This document shows, piece after piece, positions 9,857 through 49,672 of a stretch of DNA of 64,000 nucleotides (its first letter is position 1; every line of letters starts with the position of its first letter). A program made the translations under genes and the position numbers. Source of the DNA: a virus. Lineage: Duplodnaviria > Caudoviricetes. Under the pieces are notes generated by a model. That model did not search any database and was not told where the DNA came from. It saw only the letters and a program-made list of their open reading frames with translations. The stretch lies in IMG/VR virus record IMGVR_UViG_3300014205_006854, positions 7,269 to 71,268 of that record; one strand, given 5' to 3'.

Positions 9857-10357
9857 TTATTCAGGTATAAATACACCTTTAAAATAATTGCGCATATCTT
9901 CTGTAGTAGAAAAAATATGTGTGCTATTCTCTTTATTTTTTAAAGCATAAATAGAATCTAATAATGCTGTTGTTTGTGTTTTAGCAATCGATTTTCTATC
10001 TATCTTTTCAGCTAACTGTTCAATCATATCATGTAATTTTTTAGCTTTATATTCTAATCTTTCATACTTATATTTGATATTTTCTATGAATGGCTTTTTT
10101 GCTTTTTCAATTATCCTTCCAGAATTTGCATCTAACTGTTTAGCAATTACTTGAACATCTGACAATTTAGAATTATAAATACTTTGTCCAATTGTAGAAT
10201 CTATTGATAATATCTCTGCTAATGTTTGTTGTAAATTATCTTTCTCAGCAAACATAAAATTTATCTGTTCATCAATATTTTCAATTTCAATTGATAAAAA
10301 AGCTCTTAATTCATTCAATTGTTCAAGACTTAAAGTGCCTAAAAAATTAAATGCCAA
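9857..10357 (-). CDS. Hypothetical helical protein (TTG start)
   Basis: 166-aa ORF, GGAG RBS upstream of TTG, coiled-coil character. Confidence 0.7.
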   Translation of the reverse strand: MAFNFLGTLSLEQLNELRAFLSIEIENIDEQINFMFAEKDNLQQTLAEILSIDSTIGQSIYNSKLSDVQVIAKQLDANSGRIIEKAKKPFIENIKYKYERLEYKAKKLHDMIEQLAEKIDRKSIAKTQTTALLDSIYALKNKENSTHIFSTTEDMRNYFKGVFIPE

Positions 10358-10392: not shown

Positions 10393-10448
10393 ATTGTTCT
10401 CCCGAGAACTACAAACCCGGTCAATGAACAATGGAAGGATAGTAGTTT
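10393..10448 (-). ncRNA. K-turn/pseudoknot structured RNA motif, copy 1 of 4
   Basis: Sense RNA AAACUAC-UAUCCUUCC-AUUGUUC-AUU-GA-CCGGG-UUU-GUAGUU-CUCGG-GA-GAACAAU; three helices, tandem GA/AG with 3-nt bulge; contains a G-U wobble that would be an A-C mismatch on the other strand. Confidence 0.75.
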
Positions 10449-10491
10449 GATTATGGCGTTATTAAAATAGTTTGATAAACATTTTAGAAAA

Positions 10492-13400
10492 TTACTTACC
10501 AAATAATAACATTAAAACACCTTCAGCAGCTTGTGCTACTTCTGCAGTTCCAACACCACCATATGCTAATACAACACCAGCAGTATATCCTTCAGGTCCA
10601 CTATCTGGTCCACTCTTTGCAGTTTTAATAGCACTCTTCAAATATTCATTTCCACCAACATTAATTGGAACATGTAAAGCATATACTGAACCAATATCAA
10701 ACATAGCAATTAATAAATCTACTAAATCTTTAATTCTTTGAATAAATGATTTTATATAAGCAATTTTCTTTTGAATCAAATTGATAAAATTAATAATTGC
10801 TTGAGTCATTTTTTCGATAGAATTTAATAATGACTTTAAAAAATCTTCTAAATAATCTATTATTTCAAACAAAAATGGAAATAACTCTTTCATTGATTTA
10901 GTTCTATACCAATCTGGCGGATTTTTATATCCTGCTCTATTTGCTGTTTTAGAATATCCATCACATCTTTGCGCTGTTATTCCGTTTTGACAATAAACAG
11001 AATCATAAAATTCTATAAATGGTATATTTTCTGACGATGCACCTAATGTAAAATCTTCGTTAACTTTATATGCTATTCTTTTAGATATACCAGAATTTGA
11101 ACAACTTCCATTAACATTATAAAAACAACATCTATTCTCATATCCAGGACATAATGTCGTACCATTATCACATTCAATTGGTTGCCAATATGTTTTATTA
11201 AACAATGAATTAGTACATTTAAAATTCGATTCAAATCCAGCATAATATGAATAAGAACATTGTGCAGTAACATTATTAACATTTAAATAATCTGTTAAAG
11301 TGTTACTTTTTAATTGTACTCTACCTTTATATATATCTAAAATTTGATAATTTTCTTGTGATAATGGTATTGTTTTTTCAATGTCATCATCAATTGAATA
11401 TTTCAATTGTATTTGTAATGATGTCGCTTCTAAATTTGATTTTAAAGTAATAATAGGATCATTTTTAAGTGAACCAACATTAATAAGTTGATTTTTAATA
11501 CTTTCTTGTTTTCCAGAAAAACTTCTAATTTTGTATGTGACATCTAAATCATCATTTAATAAAAAGAAATTAGGTTTTAAAAATACTATAGTGCTATTTT
11601 CTTGAGAAAAATGATATTCATTTTTTGGAATTGAAAATATATCAGGATTTTCAGTTTTATTTTTTCTAGATATTGTTACATCTAAACTACTAGTTACAAT
11701 ATTTTTATTTTTTAATGATATCGCTTTTCCAGCTTTTATGTTTTCATATCTATTTACATCTATAGGTAATGATTCATTTTTTTCAACAGTATCACCACAA
11801 CTAAAATGTCTACATCTTGCTTCACCAGTTAAATTCTCTATAAATGTTGATTTTGGCATCAAAGCTATTTCTGCTGATTTTGGACCAATAGCATACAAAT
11901 TTTCATACTTAAATGCTAATCTTTCAATCTTGTTTCCAGCAGTATCATATTTAACAATGTCAATAAGATCGGAATATTTTTGTCCTAAAAGTTCTTCTTT
12001 TATTTTTTTATCATCCCCAACAGATGCTGAACATACAACATAATAATAAATTTTGTCATTTTGTAAAGGCGTTTTATTATTTGTTTTATCATCAAATACT
12101 AACTTTAAACCATCTGGTGAACCCATCAATTCTAAAATAGCACTAATACTACCAGAATCAAATATACTTCTTGACTCATCTTCACTTTTACCTGTAGCAA
12201 TCATTATAGATTCCCAAATAGTAGTAGTACCAACACATACATAATCACCAACTGCATATCCTGTCATTCTATCAGTCCAATATGCTTTTGTTTCTACACC
12301 ATTAACAATATAATCACAAGGAACAAATTCACCACCTTGAACTTCACTTCTAAAAATTACATAAGCATTAGGCAATGCACCTTCAGCTGCTGTAAATGTA
12401 ACTCTACATTTATCTTTTCCTGCAATGCCTGTAATACTAGACGGTGGATTAAAATTTACTTTAAATTCTAATTGAAATATTCTTGCCATTTTATAAATTT
12501 TCTGAATTAATGGAAAAATATTTCCGCTATCCATAGCCAATACTAAACAACCTGCTTTAGCATCAGCACTAAATTTTGGTCTATTAGTATCAGCAGGATC
12601 ATCAAGCGATGCACAAATTTTATTTATAAAAGCTTTGGATCCACCCTTAATAGAATTAAATCTATCACCTACTGCAAATTGCAATCCAGTTACATCTATT
12701 CCAGTAAATGCTTCCGGGGTTAAAGTAGGACTTATTTTAGATTCAGTAGGTAAAAGTGGTAAAAAATAAATTCCACTTGCTTCTAATTGTTTCTTTAATT
12801 GTTCTAAAATAGTAATTAATGCTTTTATCAACAATTTTGCAGGATCAGTTAAATCAATTATAAAAACTTTCACTGTCTCCAAAACTACATTTAATAATTC
12901 TAAAACAGTAACAAATACTCCTAAAATATCAGATAATCCTTCTGCTGTTTCCTTAATTTCCTTAGGTAATTGTAATGTAGCAACACTCCATTCTAAAATT
13001 CCTGCTACACCTTTTGCTTTTACTAAAATTTCATATGTTAACAAATTAGTATCATCAGTAGTAAATACTAAAACATCTTCTACTTTTTTTATTAAATGTG
13101 GATTAAAATTCAAATTAAAATTTTCTTGTGTTCCTGGTGCTATTATCTTTACAACATTTTCAGGCCATGCTGCACCAGCTGAAGTTGTTAATTTAAATTC
13201 TGGATAATTCTCTTCAAAATGATATCCAACATTCAAATTCGCTGTTCCCTCATTCTTTATCACAATAGTTCTTTGAGAAGACGTATCTACAGGTACTTCA
13301 GAAAAATCTATAAAATTAGGCTTTATATTAGCTTTAGGTAATTGTGCACCTGAACCAACAAGTCCTATCTGAACGTTAGGATTATTGATATCATTAGTCT

Positions 13401-15747
13401 GTAAATTTAAAGTTGCTGGATAACTTTGAACACTACTTGGAGTAAACGTAATACTCAATTCTTTAGATTCTTGCTGATTCAATAAAATATTTAACTCATC
13501 TAACACATAAGCTAAACTATTAACAGTAGCATTTATAGCTAATTGAGCTTCTCCAACATTTTTAATGGTCAATGTTTTTTGCAAAATTGTATTTATACTA
13601 ACAATTCCAAAATCAATTGGAGATAATGATGTTTCAATTTGTGAAGTTGATCCAATACCTGTAGCTTGTATTTTAATATCTGGAGTATCTAAATCATTAC
13701 TTGAAAATGTTATCTCACATTCTTCTTCTTGTAGTATAGTCGGTAAAAATTTTATAATAAATTCATATTCACCTTTTGGATCTATAATAAAATTATTCAT
13801 ATCAGAATAAAATTTATCATTAGGTGAAAATACAACACTATCTATAGTCAATATTCCATCACCAAGATTCAATATTTTTATTGTTTTGGTTGATAATTCA
13901 TTCAATGAAACATTTCCAAATTCAACTATTTTTTTATCAATACTAATATCAGGAGAAACACCATTAGCACTAATATTGACTAATTTGATAGGATTTGTAA
14001 AATCATCAGATTTTATTGTTAATACTGCATTATCGAGTCCAATAAATGTAGATTCATGTTTTATAGAAATAGTTTCAATTTTCGAAAAAGTCTTTGGAAA
14101 ATTATGACTTAAAATAAAATTTGGATTATCAATTAATACTTCTGTTACAGTTAATGGAATAGTATTCCCAGAAGAAATACTTAACGTTCCAGTTTTCTCT
14201 TCTCCAATATTTATATTGTTAAAATTAAATTCATCCTCTACTAATATTTTAGGTGATCCACCTTTTCCTTTTAAATCAACTTGTAAAGATGTTGCTAATA
14301 CAGAAACTATCAATATTCCATTGTTCTCTGTTTCATCAATAGCTACATATGAAATGTCAACATATTTTTTTTCTTTTGACTGAATAACAATAATATTATC
14401 ACTAGAAAATTGTGTCAAATTGCTATTTAATTCAACTGTTAAATCTATACTAGAATTATTTGTTATTGCTAATTTCTTTATTGCTTCACTACCTATTTTA
14501 TTAGTACCAAAATTTATAAAATTAGTATTAACTGAAATAGGGATTGTCGATACACCACTTAATGGAATTAAAATTGTAGATGAATCAGGATCATTACTAT
14601 TTATAATCAAATTTTCACTATATGAAGTAATTGTATCTGGAATAAAAGTGATAATTAAATCACTAAAAGAATTAGGATCTATAGAAACATTAGTTGGTAA
14701 AACAGTAAAAACAGAATTTGAACAACTTGCAACAACATTTAAAGAAACAGTACCTCTATTAAAAATTCTAACCTTTTTATTTGTGTTAGAAAAAAGTGCA
14801 ACACTTCCAAAATTTAAACTATTATCTTCTATTTCAATATTAGGTTCATATGAACCTTTACCACTCAAATCTATTTCTAAATTTCCTGTAGTAATATCAT
14901 TACTAAATATTGTTAATTTACCATTTAACTGTGTCGAATCTTCAGGTTTAAATTTAACTTTAATAATCGCTGTTTCATATTGTTGTAATACATAAGATGT
15001 TTCTGAATTTAAAGTAAATCCACTCGACACAACAACATTTGAAATAATTAGCTCTACACTACCATTATTAGATAATGTTACATCTAATTCCCTAAAATCA
15101 TTTATTGCCACACTTCCAAAATCTAATGATAATTTATCTGAAGCTATAATAGGCACTAAAGCATTAGCTGTTACATTTAAATCAACTATAGGTGTAAGAC
15201 TATTATTGTGAATAGAAATAACAGTTGCATAATTTCCAGAAAAAGCAGATAAAAATGTAACTTGTACTTTTGTTTCTTCTAGCGGTAAAATTGATGCAGT
15301 TGTTTTATTAACAGAAAATTTAGAATCACTACTAACAATATTAGAAATTTTCAATATTCCTTTTGATGAAATATTCTTAATAGTAAATTCTGCAGTTTTT
15401 GATTGATTTATAGCACTATTTCCTATTTCTAACAAAGTTGGAATAATACTTATCTCAGGCTTAATTCCAATTCCAACAACATTTAACTGTGAACTAACTA
15501 AACCTGCTGTTACTGTCACATTAGCAGAATATTGCTGAATCAACTGAGGTTTAAATTTGACAATAACATTTGCAGTCTTATTAGCTTTAACTAAAATAGA
15601 AATTGGAGAAACTAAAAAATTCAAATCATTTACTGAAATAGTTGCTGTAATATCATAATTAGAATCATTTATAACATTAAAATTTTTAATCAATTCTTCA
15701 TCTACTACCACTTCACCAAAATTTATTTTTGTAATTGATAATTTCAT
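10492..15747 (-). CDS. Large virion protein: nine N-terminal ASH/PapD-like (choice-of-anchor D) Ig repeats fused to a helical and Cys-rich C-terminal half
   Basis: Nine ~100-aa repeats starting [LI][DN]FGxVx[IV] with N.G...L.I and SND motifs; later CxxxxCG, C..C..CPGY clusters. Confidence 0.7.
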   Translation of the reverse strand: MKLSITKINFGEVVVDEELIKNFNVINDSNYDITATISVNDLNFLVSPISILVKANKTANVIVKFKPQLIQQYSANVTVTAGLVSSQLNVVGIGIKPEISIIPTLLEIGNSAINQSKTAEFTIKNISSKGILKISNIVSSDSKFSVNKTTASILPLEETKVQVTFLSAFSGNYATVISIHNNSLTPIVDLNVTANALVPIIASDKLSLDFGSVAINDFRELDVTLSNNGSVELIISNVVVSSGFTLNSETSYVLQQYETAIIKVKFKPEDSTQLNGKLTIFSNDITTGNLEIDLSGKGSYEPNIEIEDNSLNFGSVALFSNTNKKVRIFNRGTVSLNVVASCSNSVFTVLPTNVSIDPNSFSDLIITFIPDTITSYSENLIINSNDPDSSTILIPLSGVSTIPISVNTNFINFGTNKIGSEAIKKLAITNNSSIDLTVELNSNLTQFSSDNIIVIQSKEKKYVDISYVAIDETENNGILIVSVLATSLQVDLKGKGGSPKILVEDEFNFNNINIGEEKTGTLSISSGNTIPLTVTEVLIDNPNFILSHNFPKTFSKIETISIKHESTFIGLDNAVLTIKSDDFTNPIKLVNISANGVSPDISIDKKIVEFGNVSLNELSTKTIKILNLGDGILTIDSVVFSPNDKFYSDMNNFIIDPKGEYEFIIKFLPTILQEEECEITFSSNDLDTPDIKIQATGIGSTSQIETSLSPIDFGIVSINTILQKTLTIKNVGEAQLAINATVNSLAYVLDELNILLNQQESKELSITFTPSSVQSYPATLNLQTNDINNPNVQIGLVGSGAQLPKANIKPNFIDFSEVPVDTSSQRTIVIKNEGTANLNVGYHFEENYPEFKLTTSAGAAWPENVVKIIAPGTQENFNLNFNPHLIKKVEDVLVFTTDDTNLLTYEILVKAKGVAGILEWSVATLQLPKEIKETAEGLSDILGVFVTVLELLNVVLETVKVFIIDLTDPAKLLIKALITILEQLKKQLEASGIYFLPLLPTESKISPTLTPEAFTGIDVTGLQFAVGDRFNSIKGGSKAFINKICASLDDPADTNRPKFSADAKAGCLVLAMDSGNIFPLIQKIYKMARIFQLEFKVNFNPPSSITGIAGKDKCRVTFTAAEGALPNAYVIFRSEVQGGEFVPCDYIVNGVETKAYWTDRMTGYAVGDYVCVGTTTIWESIMIATGKSEDESRSIFDSGSISAILELMGSPDGLKLVFDDKTNNKTPLQNDKIYYYVVCSASVGDDKKIKEELLGQKYSDLIDIVKYDTAGNKIERLAFKYENLYAIGPKSAEIALMPKSTFIENLTGEARCRHFSCGDTVEKNESLPIDVNRYENIKAGKAISLKNKNIVTSSLDVTISRKNKTENPDIFSIPKNEYHFSQENSTIVFLKPNFFLLNDDLDVTYKIRSFSGKQESIKNQLINVGSLKNDPIITLKSNLEATSLQIQLKYSIDDDIEKTIPLSQENYQILDIYKGRVQLKSNTLTDYLNVNNVTAQCSYSYYAGFESNFKCTNSLFNKTYWQPIECDNGTTLCPGYENRCCFYNVNGSCSNSGISKRIAYKVNEDFTLGASSENIPFIEFYDSVYCQNGITAQRCDGYSKTANRAGYKNPPDWYRTKSMKELFPFLFEIIDYLEDFLKSLLNSIEKMTQAIINFINLIQKKIAYIKSFIQRIKDLVDLLIAMFDIGSVYALHVPINVGGNEYLKSAIKTAKSGPDSGPEGYTAGVVLAYGGVGTAEVAQAAEGVLMLLFGK

Positions 15748-22244: not shown

Positions 22245-22399
22245 TACAATGTACTCCCTCTATCAAATTTCAAAGTACTATTAGCTGCTTTCAAATGTGC
22301 TTCTTCAATTGAATTTATCAATTTAGTAATTTGTAAATTTATCTTTTTAGATAAACTTTCAAAATCAACTTCTTTAGTTTCTTCTTGTTTCAAAATCAT
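22244..22399 (-). CDS. Small 51-aa protein (MILKQEETKEVDFES...), not in the ORF track
   Basis: ATGA overlap with the endonuclease stop and TAATG overlap with the 2089-aa start; contains the GAGGGAG RBS of the next gene. Confidence 0.7.
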   Translation of the reverse strand: MILKQEETKEVDFESLSKKINLQITKLINSIEEAHLKAANSTLKFDRGSTL

Positions 22400-23646
22400 A
22401 TTAATTTCCCCGTTTCTACGCCAGCCACAGGTATTGCATTATCACTATATTGAACTAACGTTTTTACTTCATATTTTTGAAGTTCTTTAGCTGTTTGAAT
22501 TTTTGTACCAAAAATCTTAAGAGGTTCTATTAATTCGTCTTTTGCAAAAATCTTAAAATTGAAAGTTGGATTTTGTTCAGAAACTAATTTATGTTTTAAT
22601 AAATCTTTTTCTCGAACATAACCTTTTGTATCTATATAAGTATTCCAATCTTCAACATAAAAATCTGGAAAATAAGTATGTTTAACATTATTATTATCAA
22701 CATACTTAAAAAACTCAATATTTCCATGTGTTCTAAACTTCATCTTTTTAGAAGTTAACCATGCTGCAAAACGAATTTCATAACTACCTTGAAAACGTTG
22801 ACCATTATACTCATAAAGTTTTATTGGTCCAAACTTTGTTTTAAGTGCTTTATGCAATTTTAAATGTTGTGTTTCTTTTGCTGTTCTTATTTTAATACCT
22901 AATCTTTCTAATATTTTTCTAACTATTATTCTTTTCAAAGAATAAGTTTTTGCTATAAATATATGATGTAAAACTTTTTCAGTATAATCATACACAATTT
23001 TATCACATAGCGATAAATTTTGAATAATTTCATTAATTTGGTTAGATTCTTTAATTCGTTTATTCAACATTCTAGAACTTTTATTATTTCTTAAAATATG
23101 ATTCTGTTTAAGAATAGCACATACAGTTCTTTTCGAAATTCCCATTTTTATTGCAATCGTTTTGTATGAATCACCGCTATTTTTATATGAATCAATTATT
23201 TTTTCTATTTCTACATCACTAACATAATTTCTAAATTTCTTTCTGAAATTAGTCTTTTGTTTTGAAGGATGCTGCAAATGCCAAGTTTCTCCAGATGTAC
23301 GTTTATAAAATTTAAAATGTTCAAAAAGAATTTGATTTACAATTTCAACTTTCAAAAAATATTTTTGAGCTATAACTTTTATATTTGTAAACTTTTCATA
23401 TTCACATTTTACTTGATTCAATAAATCATAATTTTTAAAAATAATGTTAAATTTATTCGTTTCTTTATCTTTTAATCTTAATTTCCATCTTTTAATTCCT
23501 TGTTCATATTGTTCAGCTTTACGTAAAATATCTAAAATAGTTGGTCTACTAACATTATATTTTAATTCTAATAAATGTACAGATATATTACTTGTTTTAT
23601 ATTCTGCTATTATTTTTAATTTAAGATCTTCACTTATTTTTTTCAT
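22396..23646 (-). CDS. Free-standing putative homing endonuclease (HTH repeats plus TnsA-N-like PD-(D/E)XK domain)
   Basis: FQGSYEIRFA...TYFPDFYV...YIDTKG catalytic pattern; several N-terminal HTH-like repeats; Lys-rich. Confidence 0.8.
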   Translation of the reverse strand: MKKISEDLKLKIIAEYKTSNISVHLLELKYNVSRPTILDILRKAEQYEQGIKRWKLRLKDKETNKFNIIFKNYDLLNQVKCEYEKFTNIKVIAQKYFLKVEIVNQILFEHFKFYKRTSGETWHLQHPSKQKTNFRKKFRNYVSDVEIEKIIDSYKNSGDSYKTIAIKMGISKRTVCAILKQNHILRNNKSSRMLNKRIKESNQINEIIQNLSLCDKIVYDYTEKVLHHIFIAKTYSLKRIIVRKILERLGIKIRTAKETQHLKLHKALKTKFGPIKLYEYNGQRFQGSYEIRFAAWLTSKKMKFRTHGNIEFFKYVDNNNVKHTYFPDFYVEDWNTYIDTKGYVREKDLLKHKLVSEQNPTFNFKIFAKDELIEPLKIFGTKIQTAKELQKYEVKTLVQYSDNAIPVAGVETGKLI

Positions 23647-24321: not shown

Positions 24322-24377
24322 ATTGTTCTCCCAAGAACTACCGGCTTGGTCTATGAACAATGGTGGGATAGTAGTTT
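24322..24377 (-). ncRNA. K-turn/pseudoknot structured RNA motif, copy 2 of 4
   Basis: AAACUAC-UAUCCCACC-AUUGUUC-AUA-GA-CCAAG-CCG-GUAGUU-CUUGG-GA-GAACAAU; CCAAG/CUUGG is a compensatory variant of CCGAG/CUCGG. Confidence 0.75.
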
Positions 24378-24417
24378 GATTTATTTAAGAATGTTCAATT
24401 TATAAAAAGTATAGAAA

Positions 24418-25739: not shown

Positions 25740-25814
25740 ATTAAAACAAAAATTATAAAAGTTTTAGAAAAGACAAATTTTTGTATTTTTCTTATTTTAT
25801 TTCGAGGCGTGAGT

Positions 25815-26131: not shown

Positions 26132-27400
26132 TTATTTTATAACGGTAAATGGTATAGTTGTTGATTTGTTGTTGATTGATACTTTTGTGAAATATTTTCC
26201 AGATGGAAGATTAGAATTTAACATTACTGAATGAGTACCTGGAAGCATTCTAGATTCAACAACTTTCTTAACCATATTACCATTAACGGTATATAGCTTG
26301 ATTGATACGAGTGATTCCTGAGATAAGGAGAATGAGATTCTAGATGATGGATTACATGGATTAGGATATATTTTTGTTAAAGAAGATTTAGAAGTAGAAG
26401 TTTCTATTGAAGTTGATGTATGTGTTGTATCAAGTGTGAAAGAAGAATCAGGATTACTAAATGTATGAAAAACAGTTGGTGTATACATCATGATTGGATA
26501 AGTAGTATTGATAGAAAAAGAATATATTTTCCATGTTGTATAATCAGTTGTATAATTATAAATTGAATAAATTGTATTTTCTGTAATAATAAAAAGTTTT
26601 TCCTGAAAATAAATTACTTTCAAATTAGTATATTTTTCATTAGAAAATTTGATAGTTTCACTTGAATCTCTATAGTTAATAAAATAGATGCAAGAATCAA
26701 TATTGTTTATATACCATATGGAAGTAGAAAAAGAAACTGTTTCAAATTCTTTCATTTCATTATACTTAATATTAGGATTTTTATATGATAATGATGTATT
26801 TGTTTTTATTATTATTGTATCATTTAGTTGTGTTACCATTACTAATTGATTTGTTGTTGTTATAAATCTAATTGCATTATCTTTTCCATTAAAAAAAGAG
26901 AATGTTTTAACGTTTGTTGCTATGGTGTCATTTTTGAATGTATCGTCTCTTTTTAAATCATATTTGTAATTATAATATGTTGATATACCGTGGATAGTTG
27001 TTCTGTATAATACATGAGATATAGTATCCAGAACGTACATGTATTTGCAATTTCCTGTTCCTGTGATTGTAGGGTTATTAACGGTGAAAGTATCAGGTAC
27101 TTTTATGATTGAATTTTTAGAAAAGTTACGTTCATATTTGAATGTGAAAGTATCTCTTGGAATAGCATTTTCAATGTGAGTTGAATAATAATAAAAGTTG
27201 CTATCAGTAAAATAAACCAGTTTTGTATCTGTAGTATCGTGAACTGAAGTAAGAGTGCTTTCGATAACGATTGTTTTGTTACCAAAAGAGTTTGTTAATG
27301 GTTTGATGTTTGGTGTGTAGAATGAGTTGATTGTGCCTTCAGAAATCGTCAATGTAAATGTTGAGATTGTGAAGATTAAGATTGTGATGATTGCTTTCAT
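26132..27400 (-). CDS. Secreted protein with C-terminal T9SS type-A sorting / FlgD-Ig-like domain
   Basis: Hydrophobic signal peptide MKAIITILIFTISTF; C-terminal KIYPNPCNPSSRISFSL...IKLYTVNG...LPSGKYF signature; AAGGAG RBS. Confidence 0.8.
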   Translation of the reverse strand: MKAIITILIFTISTFTLTISEGTINSFYTPNIKPLTNSFGNKTIVIESTLTSVHDTTDTKLVYFTDSNFYYYSTHIENAIPRDTFTFKYERNFSKNSIIKVPDTFTVNNPTITGTGNCKYMYVLDTISHVLYRTTIHGISTYYNYKYDLKRDDTFKNDTIATNVKTFSFFNGKDNAIRFITTTNQLVMVTQLNDTIIIKTNTSLSYKNPNIKYNEMKEFETVSFSTSIWYINNIDSCIYFINYRDSSETIKFSNEKYTNLKVIYFQEKLFIITENTIYSIYNYTTDYTTWKIYSFSINTTYPIMMYTPTVFHTFSNPDSSFTLDTTHTSTSIETSTSKSSLTKIYPNPCNPSSRISFSLSQESLVSIKLYTVNGNMVKKVVESRMLPGTHSVMLNSNLPSGKYFTKVSINNKSTTIPFTVIK

Positions 27401-27811: not shown

Positions 27812-28075
27812 TTATTTAATTATGAAAAATTTAGAAATTCCTATTCTTTCAAAAACGTTTAAAACATGTGCATTTAAATTTTGTAGTATTACATCTGAAT
27901 CATAATCTCTTTTTAGAAAAACAACTGCAGCAATTGTACTTGATCCAATATTATCAATATTTGAAAAATCTAACACTATTTTTCTAGCTTTCAAAATATC
28001 TGGTGTAAAATCTATAAATCTAACATCTTCATCTAGAAAAATAGTACAATCGTCTTGAATCCATTGTACTTTCAA
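27812..28075 (-). CDS. STAS-domain protein (anti-sigma-factor antagonist-like)
   Basis: KIVLDFSNIDNIGSSTI and VFERIGISKFF match the SpoIIAA/RsbV pattern; TTG start with AAGGA RBS. Confidence 0.75.
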   Translation of the reverse strand: MKVQWIQDDCTIFLDEDVRFIDFTPDILKARKIVLDFSNIDNIGSSTIAAVVFLKRDYDSDVILQNLNAHVLNVFERIGISKFFIIK

Positions 28076-28156: not shown

Positions 28157-29416
28157 TCACAGATTTTGTAAAATCTTTTTAATTATATTTTTATTAACTT
28201 TATAATTGAATGATAATTTTGATGCAGAAGTTCCATTTTCATATTCGGTTATTATTTGTTTTGCATATTTTTGACTAAAATCTTTGAAAAAATAAATTGC
28301 TCGTTGTTGTTGATTAGCCCGCTGTTTTATATTTAATTTGTTAAATATATTTTTAAAATTTTTTAATTTATATTTTTGTCGTAATTCTTTAAATCCAAAC
28401 CCATTTTCAAGATAATCTAGTTTTATTTTATCGCCAATTTGTGTAATCAAATGTTGTAATTCTAGTTCTTTATATTCTTTTGAATTTCTCAATGGTAAAT
28501 ATTTGTTATAAATAAATGAAATTAAATCTTTTCTAATATTATATTTTTTTGCTATTAAATTTAAATTAATTTTATTTACTGCATAATCTATTTTTAAATC
28601 ATTGATATTTATTCTATTTAGAATTTCTTGTAAAATTAAATTATCTGTTTTATGTTCATATAAATATTTTTCTATATTGATATTAAGTTTTTTGTCTATT
28701 TCTAAAATTTCTAATTTATTAAGTTCATTTTTCGTTAATATTGTTAATTTTAAGTCTTTGTACTTATTTTTAACAATTTCTATTTTTCTTTTGTCTTCAT
28801 TCGAGAAAAAACCTTTTATTTCTACAAATTCATCTGTATTTATTAAATAAAAATCTGGACAATAAGTTCTCAATTTATTATTATCATCAAAATATTCAAA
28901 CCTTTTAATTTTTTTATGACATAAAAATTGAATATTTTTAGATTCTAAATATAAGGCGTATTTAAATTCCCAGCTTCCTTGATATTTAATATCTTTATAA
29001 TAATACCAATTAACATTTCCACCACACTTTTGTGTTTTTCCATAACGATGTCCTTTTATACCTAAACTTTGCTTTATACTTTCAGTTTCACGCCGAGCTT
29101 CTTTATTTGTTTTTATTTTAATATTATGAAATTTTAAAATTTTAGAAATTATACATCTGTTTATTTCATATAATCTAGATAAACTTCTAAGATTTCCTCC
29201 GCAGGTTTTATAATCATCACAAATTTTTAATGCTAATGGTGAAGACATTATTTCATCTGAATAACCTTTTCCTAATCCAGAAATTTTTTCAGAAGTAACA
29301 ATATCAAATTTCTTTTTATATTCTGTATATGTTATCGAATGTAATTTTACATGCCGTGGCATTCCAATAGATGATAATTTCTTGTTGCAAATTTTACAAA
29401 AAGTTATTTTACTCAT
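28157..29416 (-). CDS. Free-standing putative homing endonuclease (Zn-finger/HTH plus TnsA-N-like PD-(D/E)XK domain)
   Basis: CKIC...H..LH N-terminus; YQGSWEFKYA...TYCPDFYL...FVEIKG; TAATG-coupled to the spike gene. Confidence 0.8.
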   Translation of the reverse strand: MSKITFCKICNKKLSSIGMPRHVKLHSITYTEYKKKFDIVTSEKISGLGKGYSDEIMSSPLALKICDDYKTCGGNLRSLSRLYEINRCIISKILKFHNIKIKTNKEARRETESIKQSLGIKGHRYGKTQKCGGNVNWYYYKDIKYQGSWEFKYALYLESKNIQFLCHKKIKRFEYFDDNNKLRTYCPDFYLINTDEFVEIKGFFSNEDKRKIEIVKNKYKDLKLTILTKNELNKLEILEIDKKLNINIEKYLYEHKTDNLILQEILNRININDLKIDYAVNKINLNLIAKKYNIRKDLISFIYNKYLPLRNSKEYKELELQHLITQIGDKIKLDYLENGFGFKELRQKYKLKNFKNIFNKLNIKQRANQQQRAIYFFKDFSQKYAKQIITEYENGTSASKLSFNYKVNKNIIKKILQNL

Positions 29417-39173: not shown

Positions 39174-39234
39174 AAAACCTCCTTTTAATTTTAATTTAAT
39201 CTGAAATATACAAAGTTATTAACGTTTTAGAAAA

Positions 39235-40698
39235 TTATTCAAATGATATACTATCTAGATTATCATTTTGTAACTTTTTCAATCCCATTTTTCGCTTTAA
39301 CATTATCTTTTGTGCATTTTCTTTTATTCTACGTTGCTGTTCTTTTTTCTCTTCCAAAATATCTCTGGCTTCAATATTTATTTCTTTCTTCTCCGCTGCC
39401 TTAACTACATTTTGATATTCATCTTCTGTTTCATCAAATACAGATTCATCTACCAAACCAACTTCAATATCTTCATCTTGTTCTTTTATTGATTCACCCT
39501 TATCATCTCTAACAATATCTTTTTTAATAGGTAATGGTTTATCTTTAGATTTATTTTGTAATGATTGTTGATACTCTAATGCCTTTTGTTCTATGTCTAT
39601 TTTTTCATTCATTGTTTCATCAAAAACTAATTTTTTAACATCTATTTTTAATTCAGAAAAAGCTTTATCATTTATGATATCTTCATAGCTAACATTTTCA
39701 TGATAAAATCCTGCTTGTTTAGAAGAATTAACTATTTTTTCATTTGTTTCATCATCACCTACAATAATTTCAGCTTTACTTAATGTTACATTCAAATTTT
39801 CTTCTTCATCAACTTCAGTTCTTTTTGCTTTAAAATATCTAGCAATTTCAACTTCAGTTCTTTTCTTCAATAAATTTTTCTTTAATGCTCTTTTTAAATA
39901 GTTAATAATAGCTAAATCATGATCATCTAATTTTTTTCCAGATACTTCATCAATCATAACTTGATTAACTCTATCAGCATATTGTTGTTTTGTTTCACCT
40001 TCTTTTCTCTTAAACTGATTAGCAATATTAGCACCTAAATCAACTAATCCTTCACTAGTTTTTTCTTCACCATTTTCATCAAATTCTTCATTATCTGTAT
40101 CAAACTTTTTACTAACAGACATTGTTCCTTTTACTTTATTGTATGCTTTAGGATTAGTAAAAGCACATACATAACTTGTCATATACTCGAATTTATGCCA
40201 TGAACGTTTCTCATTTTCTATCAAATCTGTTTGTTTATTAATTATAATCCAATAAAATTGAACATCATTCATATTATGAATAAATTCAATATTGTATGTT
40301 GCACCTTGAAAAATATTCCACAAATTTCTAGAATATGAATCTTTAACAAATTCATCTATTTTGTTAATTGCTGAATTTACTCTTATTTCTAGTTGTTCAT
40401 ATTGTTCATATAATTCTACAATAATAGATGGTCTAAATTTTGAAACATATTTTAATGTTTTTGCAAATTCTATTTTATTGCCACAAATTTTACAAAGTGA
40501 TGCTGAAACTATCTCGATCATTAAATTAAAATTATAAATCTTTGGCAAAAATTTATATTTTTCACTTAACTCCAAACGCTCATTTTTTTTCAATGAACGC
40601 ATCGTAACAATTGTAGTATAAAACTCAAATGTATGAGATACATATCCTTCCATAATTAAAGAATACACATCTTCAAACACTTTATCACTTTTCTTCAT
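39235..40698 (-). CDS. Hypothetical protein, possibly tail assembly chaperone-like
   Basis: 487 aa; N-terminal IVTMRSLKKNE chaperone-like pattern, acidic coiled-coil C-terminus; directly after the tube gene. Confidence 0.5.
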   Translation of the reverse strand: MKKSDKVFEDVYSLIMEGYVSHTFEFYTTIVTMRSLKKNERLELSEKYKFLPKIYNFNLMIEIVSASLCKICGNKIEFAKTLKYVSKFRPSIIVELYEQYEQLEIRVNSAINKIDEFVKDSYSRNLWNIFQGATYNIEFIHNMNDVQFYWIIINKQTDLIENEKRSWHKFEYMTSYVCAFTNPKAYNKVKGTMSVSKKFDTDNEEFDENGEEKTSEGLVDLGANIANQFKRKEGETKQQYADRVNQVMIDEVSGKKLDDHDLAIINYLKRALKKNLLKKRTEVEIARYFKAKRTEVDEEENLNVTLSKAEIIVGDDETNEKIVNSSKQAGFYHENVSYEDIINDKAFSELKIDVKKLVFDETMNEKIDIEQKALEYQQSLQNKSKDKPLPIKKDIVRDDKGESIKEQDEDIEVGLVDESVFDETEDEYQNVVKAAEKKEINIEARDILEEKKEQQRRIKENAQKIMLKRKMGLKKLQNDNLDSISFE

Positions 40699-40737: not shown

Positions 40738-40792
40738 TGTACTCTCCCGAGGACTACAAACTCGGTCTATGAGTACTTGAAGATAGTAGTCT
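40738..40792 (-). ncRNA. K-turn/pseudoknot structured RNA motif, copy 3 of 4
   Basis: AGACUAC-UAUCUUCAA-GUACUC-AUA-GA-CCGAG-UUU-GUAGUC-CUCGG-GA-GAGUAC; compensatory changes in two helices (GUACUC/GAGUAC, GACUAC/GUAGUC). Confidence 0.8.
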
Positions 40793-40840: not shown

Positions 40841-41467
40841 TTAGTTCGACAGAGCGAACATTTTGCTTCTATTTACTTCATTGATTGCATCATCAGATTC
40901 ACCATCAAATTCACCAAGAGCGAATACGTTAGTAATCATAAGTGATGTATCTTGAGTTGCTGCTGTATCACCCATATTAAATGATTTAGAATAATCTGTC
41001 ATCCAACAACCTTCATAAGTTGTAAGAATTACTCTTGCACCATCTTCTGATTGAGCTGCACCAGCTTGATAATTAAGAAATGTAGGAATAACTATAGATT
41101 CTTTGACATCAAAAGGCCATCTGTGATGTTTTAAAGATCTCATTAAACCAGAAGAACCAGCTTTATATCCAAATACTTGCATAATGTCTTTTAAATACAT
41201 CATCATAATTGAACATGAAGCTTGAAGCTCTGTTAATCCAACACCAAGTTCTGCAATTTGATCTCCAAAACCCATACCTCTATGTGGTTCTACCGATCTA
41301 TTTTGAGTTGGATTCCAACTTTGTAATAAACCAATCTGAGCAGGTGTTGTACCTGTATCTGCATCAATACTAAACAACTTAACCTTCTGTGTATTAAGAA
41401 GTCTGGTATTGGGCGACGTACCTTCACGGTATACATATCCACCGTTATTAGGTTTTTGTGAAGCCAT
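40841..41467 (-). CDS. Tail tube protein
   Basis: 208 aa after the sheath; GLLQSWNPTQNR...IAELGVG...TYEGCWMTDYS; AGGAGG RBS. Confidence 0.85.
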   Translation of the reverse strand: MASQKPNNGGYVYREGTSPNTRLLNTQKVKLFSIDADTGTTPAQIGLLQSWNPTQNRSVEPHRGMGFGDQIAELGVGLTELQASCSIMMMYLKDIMQVFGYKAGSSGLMRSLKHHRWPFDVKESIVIPTFLNYQAGAAQSEDGARVILTTYEGCWMTDYSKSFNMGDTAATQDTSLMITNVFALGEFDGESDDAINEVNRSKMFALSN

Positions 41468-41500: not shown

Positions 41501-41523
41501 TGGAGGGGATATTTTCCCCTCCA
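41501..41523 (-). terminator. Hairpin/terminator between sheath and tube genes
   Basis: TGGAGGGGA/TCCCCTCCA 9-bp stem followed by GTTTTTCTCTT on the minus strand. Confidence 0.7.
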
Positions 41524-41529
41524 TATAAC

Positions 41530-44223
41530 TTAGAATTTGATTCTAATATTGAATACAACTTCAATCCAATTTAAACCAACTATTGGACGATAGTAAGCTG
41601 AACATCTAATAAAGTCTGGTTGAGCAGAATCTCTTTCTGCACTTACACCTTTGTAAGCATCAATAATCTGAGCATCTTTTTCAGCTTGTAAAACAGCCGC
41701 TAAAGATGTTTCAACTTCTGATGTCAAATTAGATACAAACTTACGTCCAATATAACCATCCAAAGCTCTTCTGGATTCTTGTTGTGTGTAATCTCTAATA
41801 GTAGTTATGTTCAATTCTCTGGTTAATGTAGATTCCATTCTTGTAGTTAAACAATGTCTAACAACGAATGGTCCACCACCCATAATAACTGTAACACCTT
41901 TTGTTGCAACCATATCCATAGTTGCTTCATCCATTTCTCTAATTAGAGCCTTAAATCCAACAATCTGTTTTCTTGTCATCGGTTCAGCAACATCATAAGC
42001 TGTGCTTACATTCACACCAATTAAAGCTGCTGCTAAGAAAGAACCATCAACAACATTTTGAACAGCTGTTCCATCTGCAGCAATCAATTCTGTAACTGCT
42101 CCATCAGGATAAAGTGCAACCATTCTTTCACTGTTAATAGTTGCTGCATAATTAGCAGCTTCTAAAGGTTCTGTTCCAACTGCAAATCCAAAGAATGAAA
42201 TTCTTTCTCGTCTCATTCTCTTAGATGACATAACATTACAATGTTGACTTGTATATTCAATAACAGATTTTGAAGTTGTTACTGGGAAAATAACTGCTGG
42301 ATTAACTCCACTAACAGGATATTTTAATCTATCTATCACTTCAAAATAAGATTGATCTGCGGCCACTTCTGAATTCGTAGCTCTCTTAGTTTGACAAGTT
42401 ATAAGAACAATTGCTCCATTCATGAATAATATATTGGAAGCAAACACCAAAGGATTCTCAGCAGATAAATCACCATACTCATTAGTTATGTTTTTGAACT
42501 TGGTAAATACTTTGCATTCGTAATTACTTTTGTTATATTCATAAGTAACATAATATGTTTCACCTACTGCTGGCTCTTTACCTGATTTGTCAAATGTAAT
42601 AAGATTTGTAGAATCACCAACACTTGTGTCTTCTGTATTATCTACAATCAAATTCATACCAGGTACACTTGTTATTGGTATTGTACTTGTAACAAATATA
42701 GCATCTTTTGTAACATCAATTTCAAGTGTATCTGCAGCAGCATAAAGAGGATCAGCAGATAATGTAAACATTAATCCTGTAATAGAATCAACATACGTTT
42801 CATCTGTTGTACCAGTTCCTGAAGAACCAGAAACAACAGATGAAGTTACTGTAAATTCAGTATTAGAAGTAAATGTCAATGTTACAGTTTCATCTATTGT
42901 ATATCCTTTAGAAACAGTTGGACCAGTAAACCAATTTGCACCAGTAAAAGATGCACTTGCTACATTTTCTGTGCCAGGTATAGCAATACCTAATTGTCCA
43001 TCTTCTGAAGATATTACTTTATATGTTCCAGAACCAGATGTGCCAGCAACAACAACTTCTATTGTATAAGTATCATCTTCCATTCTTGAACGCCAATAAG
43101 TCACTAATACTGTTGCTCCAATAGCTGGTATAGATTTAAGGTAAATTTTTCCAGTATCACCATCAATTCTTGCAACAGCAACTTGAGTACCATTTACTTT
43201 TACAATAACTTTACTAGTATCTTCAGTTACTAAATCTTTACCATTTCCATCAACAATAGGTGAAAATTTTGTAGTAATTATTTTGTTACTAACTAAAAAC
43301 TGTGAAGAAACATCTTCATTATAAATCTTATCATCAACAGTCTGACCAACAATCTGCGAATCATCTAAAAATTCACTTCCTGTAGTATGTTCATTGATAA
43401 CTAATTTATATCCAGTTCCCCAAACGATAGAATCACCAATTATCGCATAATCCACACTTTCAATATAATCAGCTGTTTCAGGTGAAAGTCCTACTCTAAT
43501 CATCCTTATAGGATCAGAATATGGTAAATCATCTGATGTATTAGCATGTGAATTCCAATAATATGTAACTGTAACTGTATCAGTACTTAGAGGAGCAACA
43601 CTTAAAACAAATGATCCATCAGAACCATTTAAACTTGACACATTAGCTACTGAATTATTTACTTTTACAGTAATATGAATTACATTTGTTGTTGTTTTTC
43701 CCGCATTAGAACCATCTACTATAGGTGCATATGCAGTATAAAATGTTTTATTCACGCCATCTGCTTGAATAGAAATATTCTCATCAACAACTTTCGTATC
43801 AGTCTTTTTATAAAAGTATGTCAATTCAACTAATGAACCATTAGCAGGTGCTAAAGCAAGTGTAATCAATCCTGTTGATCCATTCACTTTTGCAACAATT
43901 ACTTGTGTTCCATCAACTTTTACAACAACATCATTTGGATTGTTTGTAATAGTAGCAGAATTATCCCCTTTTACTAAAGGAAAATTCAATACAGTGAAAG
44001 CTTTAGTAGTTCCATCACCCTGTTTCTTCTCATCTACTTTCTTCTGATCACGTGTTGCAGAACTTCCTCTTGCAATATCATAACCTTCTACTGTTTTTGT
44101 TTCATCAGCGACTCCAATCAATGCTGGAACACGCAGATTACCTAGTAACCCAACAACTGCTGGATCTAACTTGGTCTCTGTGTAAACCCCCGGTGGGCTG
44201 TACTCTTGGAATGGACCGGCCAT
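41530..44223 (-). CDS. Tail sheath protein with inserted beta-sandwich domains
   Basis: YSPPGVYTE start; C-terminal sheath motifs EPMTRKQIVGF, VRHCLTT, ELNITTIRDY, YRPIVGLNWIEVVF. Confidence 0.92.
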   Translation of the reverse strand: MAGPFQEYSPPGVYTETKLDPAVVGLLGNLRVPALIGVADETKTVEGYDIARGSSATRDQKKVDEKKQGDGTTKAFTVLNFPLVKGDNSATITNNPNDVVVKVDGTQVIVAKVNGSTGLITLALAPANGSLVELTYFYKKTDTKVVDENISIQADGVNKTFYTAYAPIVDGSNAGKTTTNVIHITVKVNNSVANVSSLNGSDGSFVLSVAPLSTDTVTVTYYWNSHANTSDDLPYSDPIRMIRVGLSPETADYIESVDYAIIGDSIVWGTGYKLVINEHTTGSEFLDDSQIVGQTVDDKIYNEDVSSQFLVSNKIITTKFSPIVDGNGKDLVTEDTSKVIVKVNGTQVAVARIDGDTGKIYLKSIPAIGATVLVTYWRSRMEDDTYTIEVVVAGTSGSGTYKVISSEDGQLGIAIPGTENVASASFTGANWFTGPTVSKGYTIDETVTLTFTSNTEFTVTSSVVSGSSGTGTTDETYVDSITGLMFTLSADPLYAAADTLEIDVTKDAIFVTSTIPITSVPGMNLIVDNTEDTSVGDSTNLITFDKSGKEPAVGETYYVTYEYNKSNYECKVFTKFKNITNEYGDLSAENPLVFASNILFMNGAIVLITCQTKRATNSEVAADQSYFEVIDRLKYPVSGVNPAVIFPVTTSKSVIEYTSQHCNVMSSKRMRRERISFFGFAVGTEPLEAANYAATINSERMVALYPDGAVTELIAADGTAVQNVVDGSFLAAALIGVNVSTAYDVAEPMTRKQIVGFKALIREMDEATMDMVATKGVTVIMGGGPFVVRHCLTTRMESTLTRELNITTIRDYTQQESRRALDGYIGRKFVSNLTSEVETSLAAVLQAEKDAQIIDAYKGVSAERDSAQPDFIRCSAYYRPIVGLNWIEVVFNIRIKF

Positions 44224-45931: not shown

Positions 45932-48900
45932 TTATGCATTTAATAAATTTATATATTTCCATGCTTTACTGCCACTGCCATCAAGTGGTATACATATAGC
46001 TAAATATGGATCAGCACCAAAGTCTGAAGACGCATACATCGCACCTATTTCAAATGGTACTCCAGCTGGTGTTGTTGAATCATATGAAGTAGGTATTTTA
46101 ACATATGATATTCCTGAAACAGTTAAATTATTTGTAACTTTAGCTGAACCAGTTACTTTTAATTTAGTCCCATTTTCAAATGCTCCACCAATACCAACAT
46201 CTCTAGTAGCAGAACTTGCTTCTAATACATCACCGCCGCCAGCTTGTAGTAGTAGTTTTGTACTATGTACAGCAATTATACCATAACCAGTATTTCCTAA
46301 AAATAGTCTAGCTAGTTGTCCAGAAGAATTCCAACCTTGTCCTCCGTCAATTAATACTGTACCAGCAACTTGTAAATCTTGAGCAACATTACCACCTGTA
46401 GATGAAAAATTTGTTCCAATTCCTACTCTACCTGCTGTTGTTATTCTTAAATTTGTATTTCCATTATAATTGAAATTTAATTGATTTAAATGATCAACAT
46501 TTGATGCCATATATAAATTGGCAAATCTATTAGTTGGAGAACCCAAATTAGAAGTATTAGAGGTATTACCTAAAAAATTACTTTGAGTTTTTATAGGAAT
46601 TGAAAAAGTAGCTTGAGTATCTAAAAGTTCTAATAATACTACATTTTTTGAAGAAACATAATATCCATCATATGCAGGATCATTTTCATAATAATATTCT
46701 ATTTTTCCTCTATTAGTATTTTGAAATGTTAAGAATGATTGATAACCAGGAGCAAATACACTTGTACCAATATTGATAGTATTGTATGTTAAACTTGTTT
46801 TATCAGGTCCATTACTTCCTAAAATTAAACTTGCATTTCCTGATCCATGTGTTAAATTTACAACTGATTTTGCATCGTACCAAACTTCAAAAGGATTAGT
46901 TGGATTTGCTGTATTGATACCAATTAAATTTGTATTTGTTCCAGTATTGTGTTTGATATATAATGCAGGAGTTTCATTATTAAAGCCTAATTTTATTGCT
47001 TTATTAGCTGATGTAGAATTATGATTATATGCAAGATATAAATAATTTGTACCAGCAGCAGCAGCATTAGTTCCAATACCTATTCCTACATCTGCTCCAG
47101 AACCTAATGTTTGGTTTGCAATCATAAGAGGGTATGTTACAGATGCATATGGTGTTGTTCCAATACCAACATTACCACTAATATTTGTATTACCATTGTC
47201 TAATACAGTAAATTTCTGAACACCTGAACTATTTGCCATATATGTTAAGAATGAAGCACCTACATCACCAATACCTTTAATTTCTAGTCTTGTTGATGCA
47301 CCTGGATCTGTACCTATACCTATATTTCCTAAAGAAACTAGTGGTCCTTGTTCAAATGTATGTTTGGTTGCTCTATATTTCATATTAACATAAGCATTAT
47401 TTGCATCATTTACAGAAGATATAACTGATGCACCAGTACTATCACTCATATGTATGTTTACATTTGTAGTTGCTTTAATATGAAATTTGGCAGCAGGTGT
47501 TGTTCCTATACCAACAGCACCACTATTCATAAATTGAATAATATGTCCAGCATTATTATCAATAACTATTTGTTGATTAGCATCATCATGTCTAATTGCA
47601 AATTTTAATGCTGAACCACTTGTAAAGAAACTGAGATTATTGCTTGCAGTAGCACCAGCAATTCCATCAAAATTTATATTTGTAGAACCTGCTGTTGATT
47701 TTATAGTCATACTTTGATTAAGACTACCAAAAACGTCCAGATTAGAACCTGGATTAGTTGAACCTATACCAATTTTTCCTAATGCATTAATACTTAATCT
47801 TACAACATCAGATGTTGCAAGATGTAAAGCAGCAGCTGAAACATTATTCATAACCAAATCATTATCTAATGCTATGAATCCATCAGTAAATGTTTTTCTA
47901 TAAGAACCTATACCTTGTTGTATTTCAGAAAGTGAATTTCCTGCTGCATTAGAAAACCCAATAGAATTTCTATTATTTGTACTACTATTATATTGAAATT
48001 TTATTCCACAATCTGGACTTGCCATTAAATGTAATAATGCTGCTGCTGATGTTGTTCCAATACCTACATTTTTATTTCCAGAGCCAGTAATAATTAATGC
48101 ATTTCCTGTTCCAGTATTATTTACTTCAATTACGTTTCCAGCACCATTTGCTGTTTTATTTATAATCAATGCTTGTTGATTTTCATCTTGATCTATTTCA
48201 AATTTATCTGTTGTTGTTATTTCTGTATTTACTATTGTTGTTGTACCTGTTACAGATAGATTTCCAGTAATTGTAGTAGTACCAGTACCAGCATGTAAGT
48301 GAATTGCTGATTGTGGAGTTGCAGTTCCTAAACCTATTCTTCCTGCTGCTGTAATAACAATTGTAGATGCTGCTGCTGTTGTATCATCTGTTATTATTAG
48401 TTGATCTGCTGCAGCATTATTTTTTATGCTAAATGTTGCAAGTCCACCTGCTGCAAATGATAAATTGGCTGCTTGTGTAGCTCCAGCAAGACCATCTATA
48501 GAAACATTTGCTGAACCACCTGTAGATTTAATTCTTAAATTTTGATTTGCTGCACCAAATATATCTACATTTGTTAAAGGTACAGATGAACCTATGCCTA
48601 TTTTTCCATCTGTTTGAACTCGCATTTTCTCAGCACCAGCATTTGATAAAATAAAATTACTATTAAAATCTATTGCTGAATTCATATAAAGTGTGCCGAT
48701 TCTATGAGTAGCATCACCTATATCAGAACCTGTTGTAAGCTTAATTGTTGTTGCAGTACCATCATAATACTGTTTCAAACTATTAACATGAATTCTGTGA
48801 TCTACAGTTACCATGCCAGGTGTAATAATAGTTGCAGATCTAGCTATTGCTGCTAATTTAACACATCTGTGAAATATTCCATTAGCATCGGTGAAAGTCC

Positions 48901-49579: not shown

Positions 49580-49634
49580 AATGTTCTCCCGAGAACTACC
49601 ACTCGGTCTATGAACATTTGTGGATTAGTAGTTT
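49580..49634 (-). ncRNA. K-turn/pseudoknot structured RNA motif, copy 4 of 4
   Basis: AAACUAC-UAAUCCACA-AAUGUUC-AUA-GA-CCGAG-UG-GUAGUU-CUCGG-GA-GAACAUU; AUGUUC/GAACAU covaries with UUGUUC/GAACAA. Confidence 0.75.
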
Positions 49635-49672
49635 GTGCGTTTAAATAAACAAATTATAAATACAATATAAAA

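Follow-up and report, generated by a model that had tools for sequence, protein, structure and literature searches.

A compact structured RNA of about 56 nt, encoded on the gene-sense strand, recurs four times between the tail genes of what appears to be an uncultured giant phage. It combines a kink-turn-type internal loop with a pseudoknot between the hairpin loop and the 5′ flank. This architecture, first proposed from a sequence-only reading of the same DNA, is now supported by covariation among homologues. We favour, with a probability of roughly 40%, an element that is bound by a protein and serves as a ribonucleoprotein (RNP) boundary mark on late messages. The role in setting the stoichiometry of mRNA segments that was originally suggested is plausible.

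Four copies at the boundaries of tail-gene blocks

The element was found in a 71,268-bp IMG/VR contig. CheckV puts its completeness at about 15%, and the contig is therefore a fragment of a very large phage genome. The window (the whole stretch of 64,000 nt that was analysed) represents most of this contig, and element copies were counted over the whole contig. All long ORFs of the window lie on the minus strand (ORF table). Sequencing runs matching the phage DNA come from landfill and groundwater metagenomes, and all are DNA runs.

The four predicted copies were all confirmed on the minus (gene-sense) strand. Copy 1 (10393-10448) lies upstream of a 166-aa gene (9857-10357, minus strand), an ORF with orthologues in relatives whose product starts MAFNFLGTLS; orthologous copies of the element mark this position as a probable ancestral site. 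Read along the minus strand, copy 1 consists of the pseudoknot 5′ strand (10442-10447), a CU-rich linker (10433-10441), the C-stem (10426-10432 with 10393-10399), the bulge AUU plus GA (10421-10425), the NC stem (10416-10420 with 10402-10406), the pseudoknot 3′ strand within the loop (10407-10412) and the return-strand GA (10400-10401). Copy 2 (24322-24377, minus strand; hairpin 24322-24361, pseudoknot 5′ strand 24371-24376) looks like an extra specific to this lineage and carries the compensatory change CCAAG/CUUGG. Copy 3 (40738-40792, minus strand; hairpin 40739-40776, pseudoknot 5′ strand 40786-40791) occupies a second probable ancestral site; the putative tail-tube gene and its terminator hairpin lie directly upstream of it, and syntenic copies occur here in 48 related loci. 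Copy 4 (49580-49634, minus strand; hairpin 49580-49618, pseudoknot 5′ strand 49628-49633), apparently another lineage-specific extra, is located upstream of a tail-fibre-like gene of 1196 aa (45932-49522, minus strand, family match).

A degenerate pattern gave exactly four matches in the 71,268-bp contig; the opposite strand and a reversed control had zero. The four copies scored 79-87 bits with a covariance model that was trained on them, and which they therefore match by construction; the next best score in the 64 kb, with filters off, was 15 bits. According to the ORF list the gap to the preceding stop is 38-48 nt and that to the following start 35-73 nt, the spacing that had been claimed. 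Each of them opens a block of co-oriented tail genes, in agreement with the proposed position at block boundaries.

The tail sheath gene (41530-44223, minus strand) was identified by a family match and is directly followed by a plain terminator (41501-41523, minus strand). Its downstream neighbour, a 208-aa protein (40841-41467, minus strand), had no match in a family search and is regarded as the putative tail tube from its position right after the sheath gene. The 487-aa gene downstream of copy 3 (39235-40698, minus strand) gave weak leads to tail assembly chaperones (scores < 0.9) and probably encodes a low-copy tail assembly factor. Further tail proteins and a neck/tail-completion protein were recognized in the window by family matches. 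The gene upstream of copy 1 (10492-15747, minus strand) encodes a 1751-aa protein with Ig-like repeats of the ASH/HYDIN/Cep192 type (PF22073, 195 bits; PF22544, 172 bits), which are unusual in a phage structural protein.

Several other genes of this region deserve mention. A T9SS C-terminal sorting domain (PF18962, 32.8 bits, above cut-off) was found in a 422-aa protein (26132-27400, minus strand) and hints at a host from the FCB group, against which stand the strong Shine-Dalgarno sites of the phage. Two paralogous ORFs among the tail genes (22396-23646 and 28157-29416, both minus strand) have PHROG matches of the endonuclease, HNH and resolvase-like type and are probably homing endonucleases. 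Adjoining the structural genes are an RNA ligase/2H-phosphoesterase-like protein (54218-54808, minus strand) and a CCA-adding tRNA nucleotidyltransferase (59134-60603, minus strand), which together look like an RNA-repair kit. An accessory island between copies 2 and 3 encodes an 87-aa STAS-domain protein with an anti-sigma-antagonist fold (27812-28075, minus strand), and a phosphoheptose-isomerase-like auxiliary gene is found at 61033-61764 (minus strand; PHROG 1238, E = 5e-24).

All three helices covary on the gene-sense strand

At the 5′ end of the element a 6-nt strand, AACUAC or GACUAC, precedes a CU-rich linker of 8-9 nt, which is followed by a C-stem of 6-7 bp, a 3-nt bulge (AUU or AUA), GA and an NC stem of 5 bp. 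The hairpin loop ends in the complement of the 5′-most strand, giving a 6-bp pseudoknot with the 5′ flank, and the 3′ part is formed by the NC return strand, GA and the C-stem return strand. As the pseudoknot helix directly adjoins the NC stem, coaxial stacking of both is possible. Among the four window copies 98.6% of the cells pair, against 33-55% in slid controls, and double compensatory changes were observed at 5 pairs, distributed across all three helices.

This covariation, already pointed out for all helices in the sequence-only reading, became far stronger once homologues were included. In an alignment of 27 sequences from the closer relatives (group A), comprising the four window copies and 23 homologues, 96.6% of the cells pair in the full structure with its pseudoknot (slid controls, 33-50%), and 12 of the 18 pairs show compensatory double changes. 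The C helix covaries at 5 of its 7 pairs and the NC helix, which is 99.3% paired, at 3 of 5. The 6-bp pseudoknot helix is 91.4% paired despite some rows being out of register, and has double changes at 4 of 6 pairs. Furthermore, a pseudoknot of 5-8 bp was found in 30/30 distinct sequences, in about ten sequence versions: its strand reads, among other forms, ACUAC, ACUGC, ACUGU, ACUAU, AUUACC, CUACAC or AAUCAUC, and in each case the loop of the same sequence provides the complement. Where a genome carries two differing copies, each 5′ strand again matches its own loop, indicating that the pairing is intramolecular. The same nested helices were returned independently by RNAalifold.

Support for the element comes from covariation and not from stability. 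By minimum free energy, copies 1, 2 and 4 do not reach significance (z = 0.04 to 0.64), and a value of z = -3.65 was obtained for the intergenic region of copy 3, which includes a further hairpin (P0, see below). We also considered a switch between the CU-rich linker and the purine-rich 3′ strand. Own combinations pair over 5.34 bp on average and swapped ones over 5.25 bp (permutation p = 0.16); this complementarity is therefore compositional and does not point to a specific alternative helix.

The alignment of 27 contains 19 G.U cells, which identify the RNA as the gene-sense strand; these pairs and the bulge/GA signature exist on that strand only, as had been claimed. A strict descriptor (UCA-NN-GA-C ... 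G-(G/A)A-GA), which demanded 5 or more bp in the C-stem and 3 or more in the NC stem, was run over 1.96 Mb from 160 related loci: 48 of these matched on the sense strand, and there was no antisense match. A repeated intergenic element with inverted repeats could in principle be a DNA-level site (a protein-binding palindrome or a recombination site) or else a self-cleaving ribozyme. The G.U cells, the strand asymmetry and the 48:0 ratio of sense to antisense matches all point to RNA, and the stem sequences vary freely while pairing is kept. The small self-cleaving ribozymes (hammerhead, twister, twister-sister, pistol, hatchet, HDV-like) gave no Rfam match, no conserved catalytic core was seen, and invariance among unpaired bases is confined to the kink-turn, which makes the self-cleavage option raised earlier unlikely. 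To these two possibilities taken together we give the least credence of all.

No catalogued RNA family matches the element

Rfam 15 was searched with the whole window at gathering score and with three short regions at E up to 10. Only noise was obtained, such as IsrR (19.7 bits) on a neighbouring AU hairpin or L10_leader (12 bits) on the wrong strand, so that the claimed absence from catalogued families holds. The SAM-I and c-di-GMP-II models produced no match at gathering score or at E up to 10 and the element is one hairpin, in line with the earlier statement that the ligand cores of those families are absent. The C box RUGAUGA and the D box CUGA are likewise absent, the core of the element being UCAUNGAC / GGAGA. 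No paper describing the element was found in full-text literature searches. A stimulator of stop-codon read-through was set aside, the element being too far from the stop; a CRISPR repeat or guide scaffold and a tRNA-like processing signal were set aside on consideration.

Two groups of relatives and two shared sites

An exact-consensus DNA pattern retrieved 7 matches from IMG/VR, all of them GC-rich chance matches without the other helices, and no relative was found with the sheath as a single-protein query. Relatives were therefore collected through the 208-aa putative tube: 787 homologues were detected, and an alignment of 30 led to 80 viral and 80 metagenomic loci. Where the tube protein is at least about 46% identical, each locus has one model match, always just downstream of the tube homologue. 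The covariance model found no match in loci with more distant tube proteins, nor did model R1 in the distant phages Tunturi_5 and LR745208.1. A scan of genome contigs with the tube alignment added three relatives only, which are distant (36-38% identity) and give no host clue. The element thus appears to be clade-specific, within a group of uncultured giant phages.

The relatives fall into two groups. Group A elements have the kink-turn hairpin and the pseudoknot and, at the tube site, a GC-rich hairpin P0 of varying sequence immediately before the element. In the sister group the same kink-turn core is combined with a GC-rich C-stem, a loop of 2-6 nt and mostly a U-rich tail, and there is no pseudoknot. 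The sister-group hairpin follows the tube stop codon at 14-25 nt (median 22, sd 3), is separated by 52-197 nt from the next start, and looks like the terminator of the tube gene. In group A the distance from the hairpin to the start codon has a median of 35 nt. At one locus (L025:10621-10678) a GC-rich C-stem like that of the sister group is combined with a 6-nt loop that could pair over 4-5 bp with the 5′ flank; this element is possibly an intermediate form between the groups.

In both groups a second conserved copy precedes the MAFDFLG gene, which is orthologous to the gene that follows copy 1 in the window. Synteny thus points to two ancestral sites, one after the putative tail-tube gene and one before the gene starting MAF(N/D)FLG. 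No further copy was detected in relatives within 10 kb of the tube gene, an interval that covers the position of copy 4, and whole-contig searches found 2-3 copies per genome; the position of copy 2 lies outside the 10-kb flanks, and its status as an extra copy rests on these whole-contig counts. On these grounds copies 2 and 4 look like extras of this lineage. The description as a four-copy element therefore applies to this phage but not to its relatives, which have 2-3 copies and share only the two ancestral sites. Overall, the element is restricted to the late structural region, with 2-4 copies per genome.

A kink-turn of a predicted protein-dependent type

The 3-nt bulge AUN follows a Watson-Crick C helix in 27/27 group A and 13/13 sister-group sequences. 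Taken as a sequence pattern, GA stands opposite GA in all window copies and in 24 of the 27 aligned sequences, the remaining three having A at 2n, the -1b.-1n pair is C-G in 27/27, and 3b.3n is a Watson-Crick C-G pair in every sequence; at this level the canonical kink-turn with C-G at -1 and 3b.3n, as claimed, is borne out. A 2n = A variant forms a kink-turn when bound by L7Ae (PMC3985660). The conserved core, UC, the bulge AUN and GA-C on the 5′ strand and G-GA-GA on the 3′ strand, is kept beyond what a kink-turn requires. Invariance covers the kink-turn and its closing pairs (-2 U-A, -1 C-G, 3b.3n C-G), and no other unpaired base is invariant. A standard kink-turn has a tight kink with cross-strand A-minor contacts, and ions, a protein or a tertiary contact induce its folding; a kinked three-dimensional shape of this sort would be expected from the pattern.

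The identity of the 3b.3n pair bears on how the kink may form. A Watson-Crick pair at this position, notably C-G, blocks folding in metal ions alone, according to the Lilley rules (PMC4382518), which were upheld in tests on new kink-turns (PMC8191799). Kink-turns predisposed to ion-induced folding have a non-Watson-Crick 3b.3n pair, usually with 3n = G, and riboswitch kink-turns avoid a Watson-Crick pair there whereas protein-bound ones such as that of U4 select it (PMC4382518). L7Ae regulatory leaders use kink-turns that are unfolded without protein (PMC6298567). The rules predict that the hairpin of the element should not be folded in Mg2+ alone, a prediction that carries over to this element what was derived on variants of Kt-7. 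The pseudoknot of group A could nevertheless fold the kink-turn without any protein, as tertiary contacts do in SAM-I according to work cited in PMC4382518.

The sequence-only reading had listed a riboswitch among the possible functions. In a riboswitch of this kind the kink-turn-guided pseudoknot would create a ligand pocket, as in SAM-I or c-di-GMP-II. The resemblance to known aptamers in the way the kink-turn brings the loop into a pseudoknot is real, and the size is that of small riboswitches. However, the Rfam searches found no match, the kink-turn bases are the sole invariant unpaired ones, and the 3b.3n C-G pair is unlike those of riboswitch kink-turns (PMC4382518). Moreover, the distance to the start codon varies with no conserved expression platform, and the neighbouring genes are structural and not metabolic. 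The sister group keeps the hairpin without the pseudoknot, which indicates that the conserved unit is the hairpin and not a ligand pocket. Together, the invariant C-G at 3b.3n and the pseudoknot-free sister group favour a role in protein docking, and we regard a riboswitch as very improbable.

Terminator hairpins and an AT-rich box near the copies

Intrinsic terminators are characterized by a GC-rich hairpin followed by a U-tract. This feature is missing from the window copies, whose C-stems are AU-rich and which lack a U-tract, and is present in the sister-group hairpins at the tube site. It is also present in hairpin P0 (40801-40832, minus strand; 13 pairs scored, 4 of them G-C, then AUCUUUUU), a terminator-like structure that ends 8 nt before copy 3 and is separate from the element. 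Two features, the geometry of the sister group and the hairpins that precede the tube copies of group A, link the element with the end of the tube cistron, as would befit a service to the upstream gene. A steep drop in expression is expected from the tube towards the next gene, the probable assembly chaperone for which we have weak leads.

The surroundings of the other copies are different. An AT-rich box, TTTCTA-N5-TTTAT, occurs directly after a stop codon at 10475-10490 (minus strand), about 27 nt upstream of copy 1. Exact copies were found at 24402-24417, upstream of copy 2, and at 25755-25770, and copies with one mismatch at 49656-49671, upstream of copy 4, at 39218-39233 and at 51361-51376, all on the minus strand; copies 1, 2 and 4 of the element thus lie about 20-27 nt downstream of a box. 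In relatives the box is sense-biased, intergenic and often abuts a stop codon, and it is confined to group A, being absent from sister-group and out-group loci. It also occurs in loci L179-L184, L015, L019, L106 and L107. About half of the raw matches in relatives are coding coincidences (peptide FLKSLS). A scan for sigma-70 promoters gave fewer matches than in shuffled sequences and was thus uninformative. The box is possibly the late promoter of this phage group, in which case copies 1, 2 and 4 would be 5′-leader elements or even parts of a small transcription unit.

As a 5′ leader, the element would belong to the downstream block, on transcripts starting at the box or reading through the tube terminator, and would stabilize them against decay that depends on the 5′ end or act by antitermination. 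RNAs that render RNA polymerase resistant to terminators exist in the HK022 put sites and the EAR element. Such a function would suit the opening of co-oriented tail-gene blocks by all four window copies, the sense-biased, group A-specific box ahead of three of them, the position of copy 3 after and not before the tube terminator hairpin, and the fairly short distance to the start codon in group A. Yet the box is only a putative promoter, and relatives have a second box between the element and the start codon, from which transcription would bypass the element. In the sister group, furthermore, the hairpin stays close to the upstream stop at a nearly constant distance, and the next start is far away. 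On balance we consider a leader function rather unlikely.

The two boxes that flank the element in relatives would also be compatible with an independent RNA gene, in which a box promoter and a short leader precede a 55-nt fold released as a trans-acting kink-turn sRNA or sRNP; the extra copies of this phage do look like copies of a cassette of box plus element. Group A copies are not followed by a terminator, however, the tube-site copies have no box and come immediately after a hairpin, and the sister-group hairpin begins 22 nt after a stop codon. A small RNA gene of this kind is very unlikely.

Candidate binders and enzymes

The L7Ae family (PF01248) is absent from five phage contigs, three of which are 91-98% complete, with positive controls detected. 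No candidate binder emerges from these contigs, which counts against a protein-bound element. The same five contigs contain no RNase III (PF14622) and no RNA polymerase beta subunit (PF00562), so the transcription and processing of these messages presumably fall to host enzymes. RNase III of the host would thus be available if the element were an endonuclease processing site, like the RNase III sites of the T7 and SP82 polycistronic mRNAs. An irregular hairpin of about 55 nt repeated between cistrons has the general appearance of such a site, and in group A the helices and G.A pairs, when unkinked, would form a stack of about 20 pairs that contains an internal loop. The sister-group hairpins, however, have 14-17 pairs only, the internal loop follows exactly the kink-turn consensus, which a cleavage bubble does not need, and the phage supplies no RNase III gene of its own. 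Processing by an endonuclease is accordingly an improbable explanation.

A proposed boundary mark on late messages

In the reading that we favour, the element would be a cis-acting structured RNA in the intercistronic regions of late (tail) transcripts. A putative docking protein, not of the L7Ae family, would fold the kink on binding, and in group A the kink would let the loop fold back onto the 5′ flank, where 5-8 bp would form and close a compact pseudoknot. The resulting RNP might act as a boundary mark behind a cistron, in the ancestral state that of the abundant tail tube, govern 3′-end formation or termination and read-through into the next gene block, and protect the flanking mRNA segments from exonucleases. 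The analysis shows the sequence pattern, the fold, its conservation and its positions, from which the kinked three-dimensional shape, the protein partner and the effect on expression are inferred. Besides the lack of a candidate binder, two observations argue against a boundary mark: with their AU-rich C-stems and no U-tract the window copies would not be terminators themselves, and copies 1, 2 and 4 follow a promoter-like box and not a terminator, an arrangement that a 5′ leader fits at least equally well.

The knot might also act with no protein at all, as a bacterial counterpart of the viral xrRNAs that stops PNPase, RNase R or RNase J and would uncouple the decay of neighbouring mRNA segments. 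The compact pseudoknotted topology, with a pseudoknot helix placed to stack on the NC stem, the intercistronic positions and the failure to find a binder gene are all compatible with such a barrier. It is harder to reconcile with the sister group, which conserves the kink-turn bases without having a pseudoknot, with the C-G pair at 3b.3n that disfavours unaided kinking (PMC4382518), or with helices that are short, AU-rich and of no unusual stability. An RNA-only exonuclease barrier therefore seems quite unlikely. A more specific form of the boundary mark would join the two ideas: a phage kink-turn RNP with a new, non-L7Ae binder from phage or host that gates termination and read-through at the boundaries of the tail operon, the pseudoknot of group A locking the protein-induced kink into an exonuclease-resistant knot. 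This version is speculative and on the doubtful side; if true, giant phages would have a new way of controlling late-gene dosage, and kink-turn-binding proteins would gain a new family.

To our knowledge, the structured regulatory RNAs of giant phages are almost unexplored. The element is small, is very well supported by covariation and has a kink-turn of the protein-dependent type in viruses without an L7Ae gene. Any binder would be a new kink-turn reader and would provide, together with the element, a compact orthogonal RNA-protein pair such as synthetic biology already employs; should there be none, the element would be a pseudoknotted mRNA boundary or exonuclease barrier from the bacterial world. 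Either way, it offers a handle on how giant phages set the differing doses of tube, chaperone and baseplate from long co-oriented operons.

Comparison with known systems

Short repeats between the cistrons of polycistronic messages are known from the RNase III sites of T7 and SP82, from REP hairpins and from chloroplast barriers of the PPR10 type, which define segment ends or differential stability. The element resembles them in its placement and differs in being a kink-turn with a pseudoknot at 2-4 sites of the tail region, known from sequence alone. With the SAM-I (RF00162) and c-di-GMP-II (RF01786) riboswitches it shares a kink-turn that bends a helix so that the terminal loop forms a pseudoknot with a distant strand. 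Unlike them, it is a single hairpin of about 55 nt that has neither a multi-helix junction nor ligand-core bases, its C-G pair at 3b.3n is not of the metal-ion-foldable kind, and some of its homologues lack the pseudoknot.

The internal loop itself is that of a standard kink-turn of the Kt-7 type, with a 3-nt bulge, tandem G.A/A.G pairs, C-G at -1b.-1n and flanking helices. Its Watson-Crick 3b.3n pair is shared with protein-dependent kink-turns, those of archaeal l7ae mRNA leaders (PMC5539422, PMC6298567), U4 snRNA and box C/D RNAs. Like the kink-turn of the archaeal l7ae leader, the element resides in untranslated mRNA and is used repeatedly, but it lies between tail genes and not in the leader of a ribosomal-protein gene. 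In contrast to L7Ae-dependent kink-turns, it has no C/D boxes, its loop forms a pseudoknot with the 5′ flank, and the phage genomes that carry it have no L7Ae-family gene. A further kink-turn from the bacterial world is that of OLE RNA, which is the required recognition site for OapC, a homologue of YbxF/L7Ae (PMC9723947). OLE is a non-coding RNA of about 600 nt from Bacillota, whereas the element, 55 nt long, would act in cis on mRNA with a partner that is putative; its role as a protein site, established for the kink-turn of OLE, is here a prediction.
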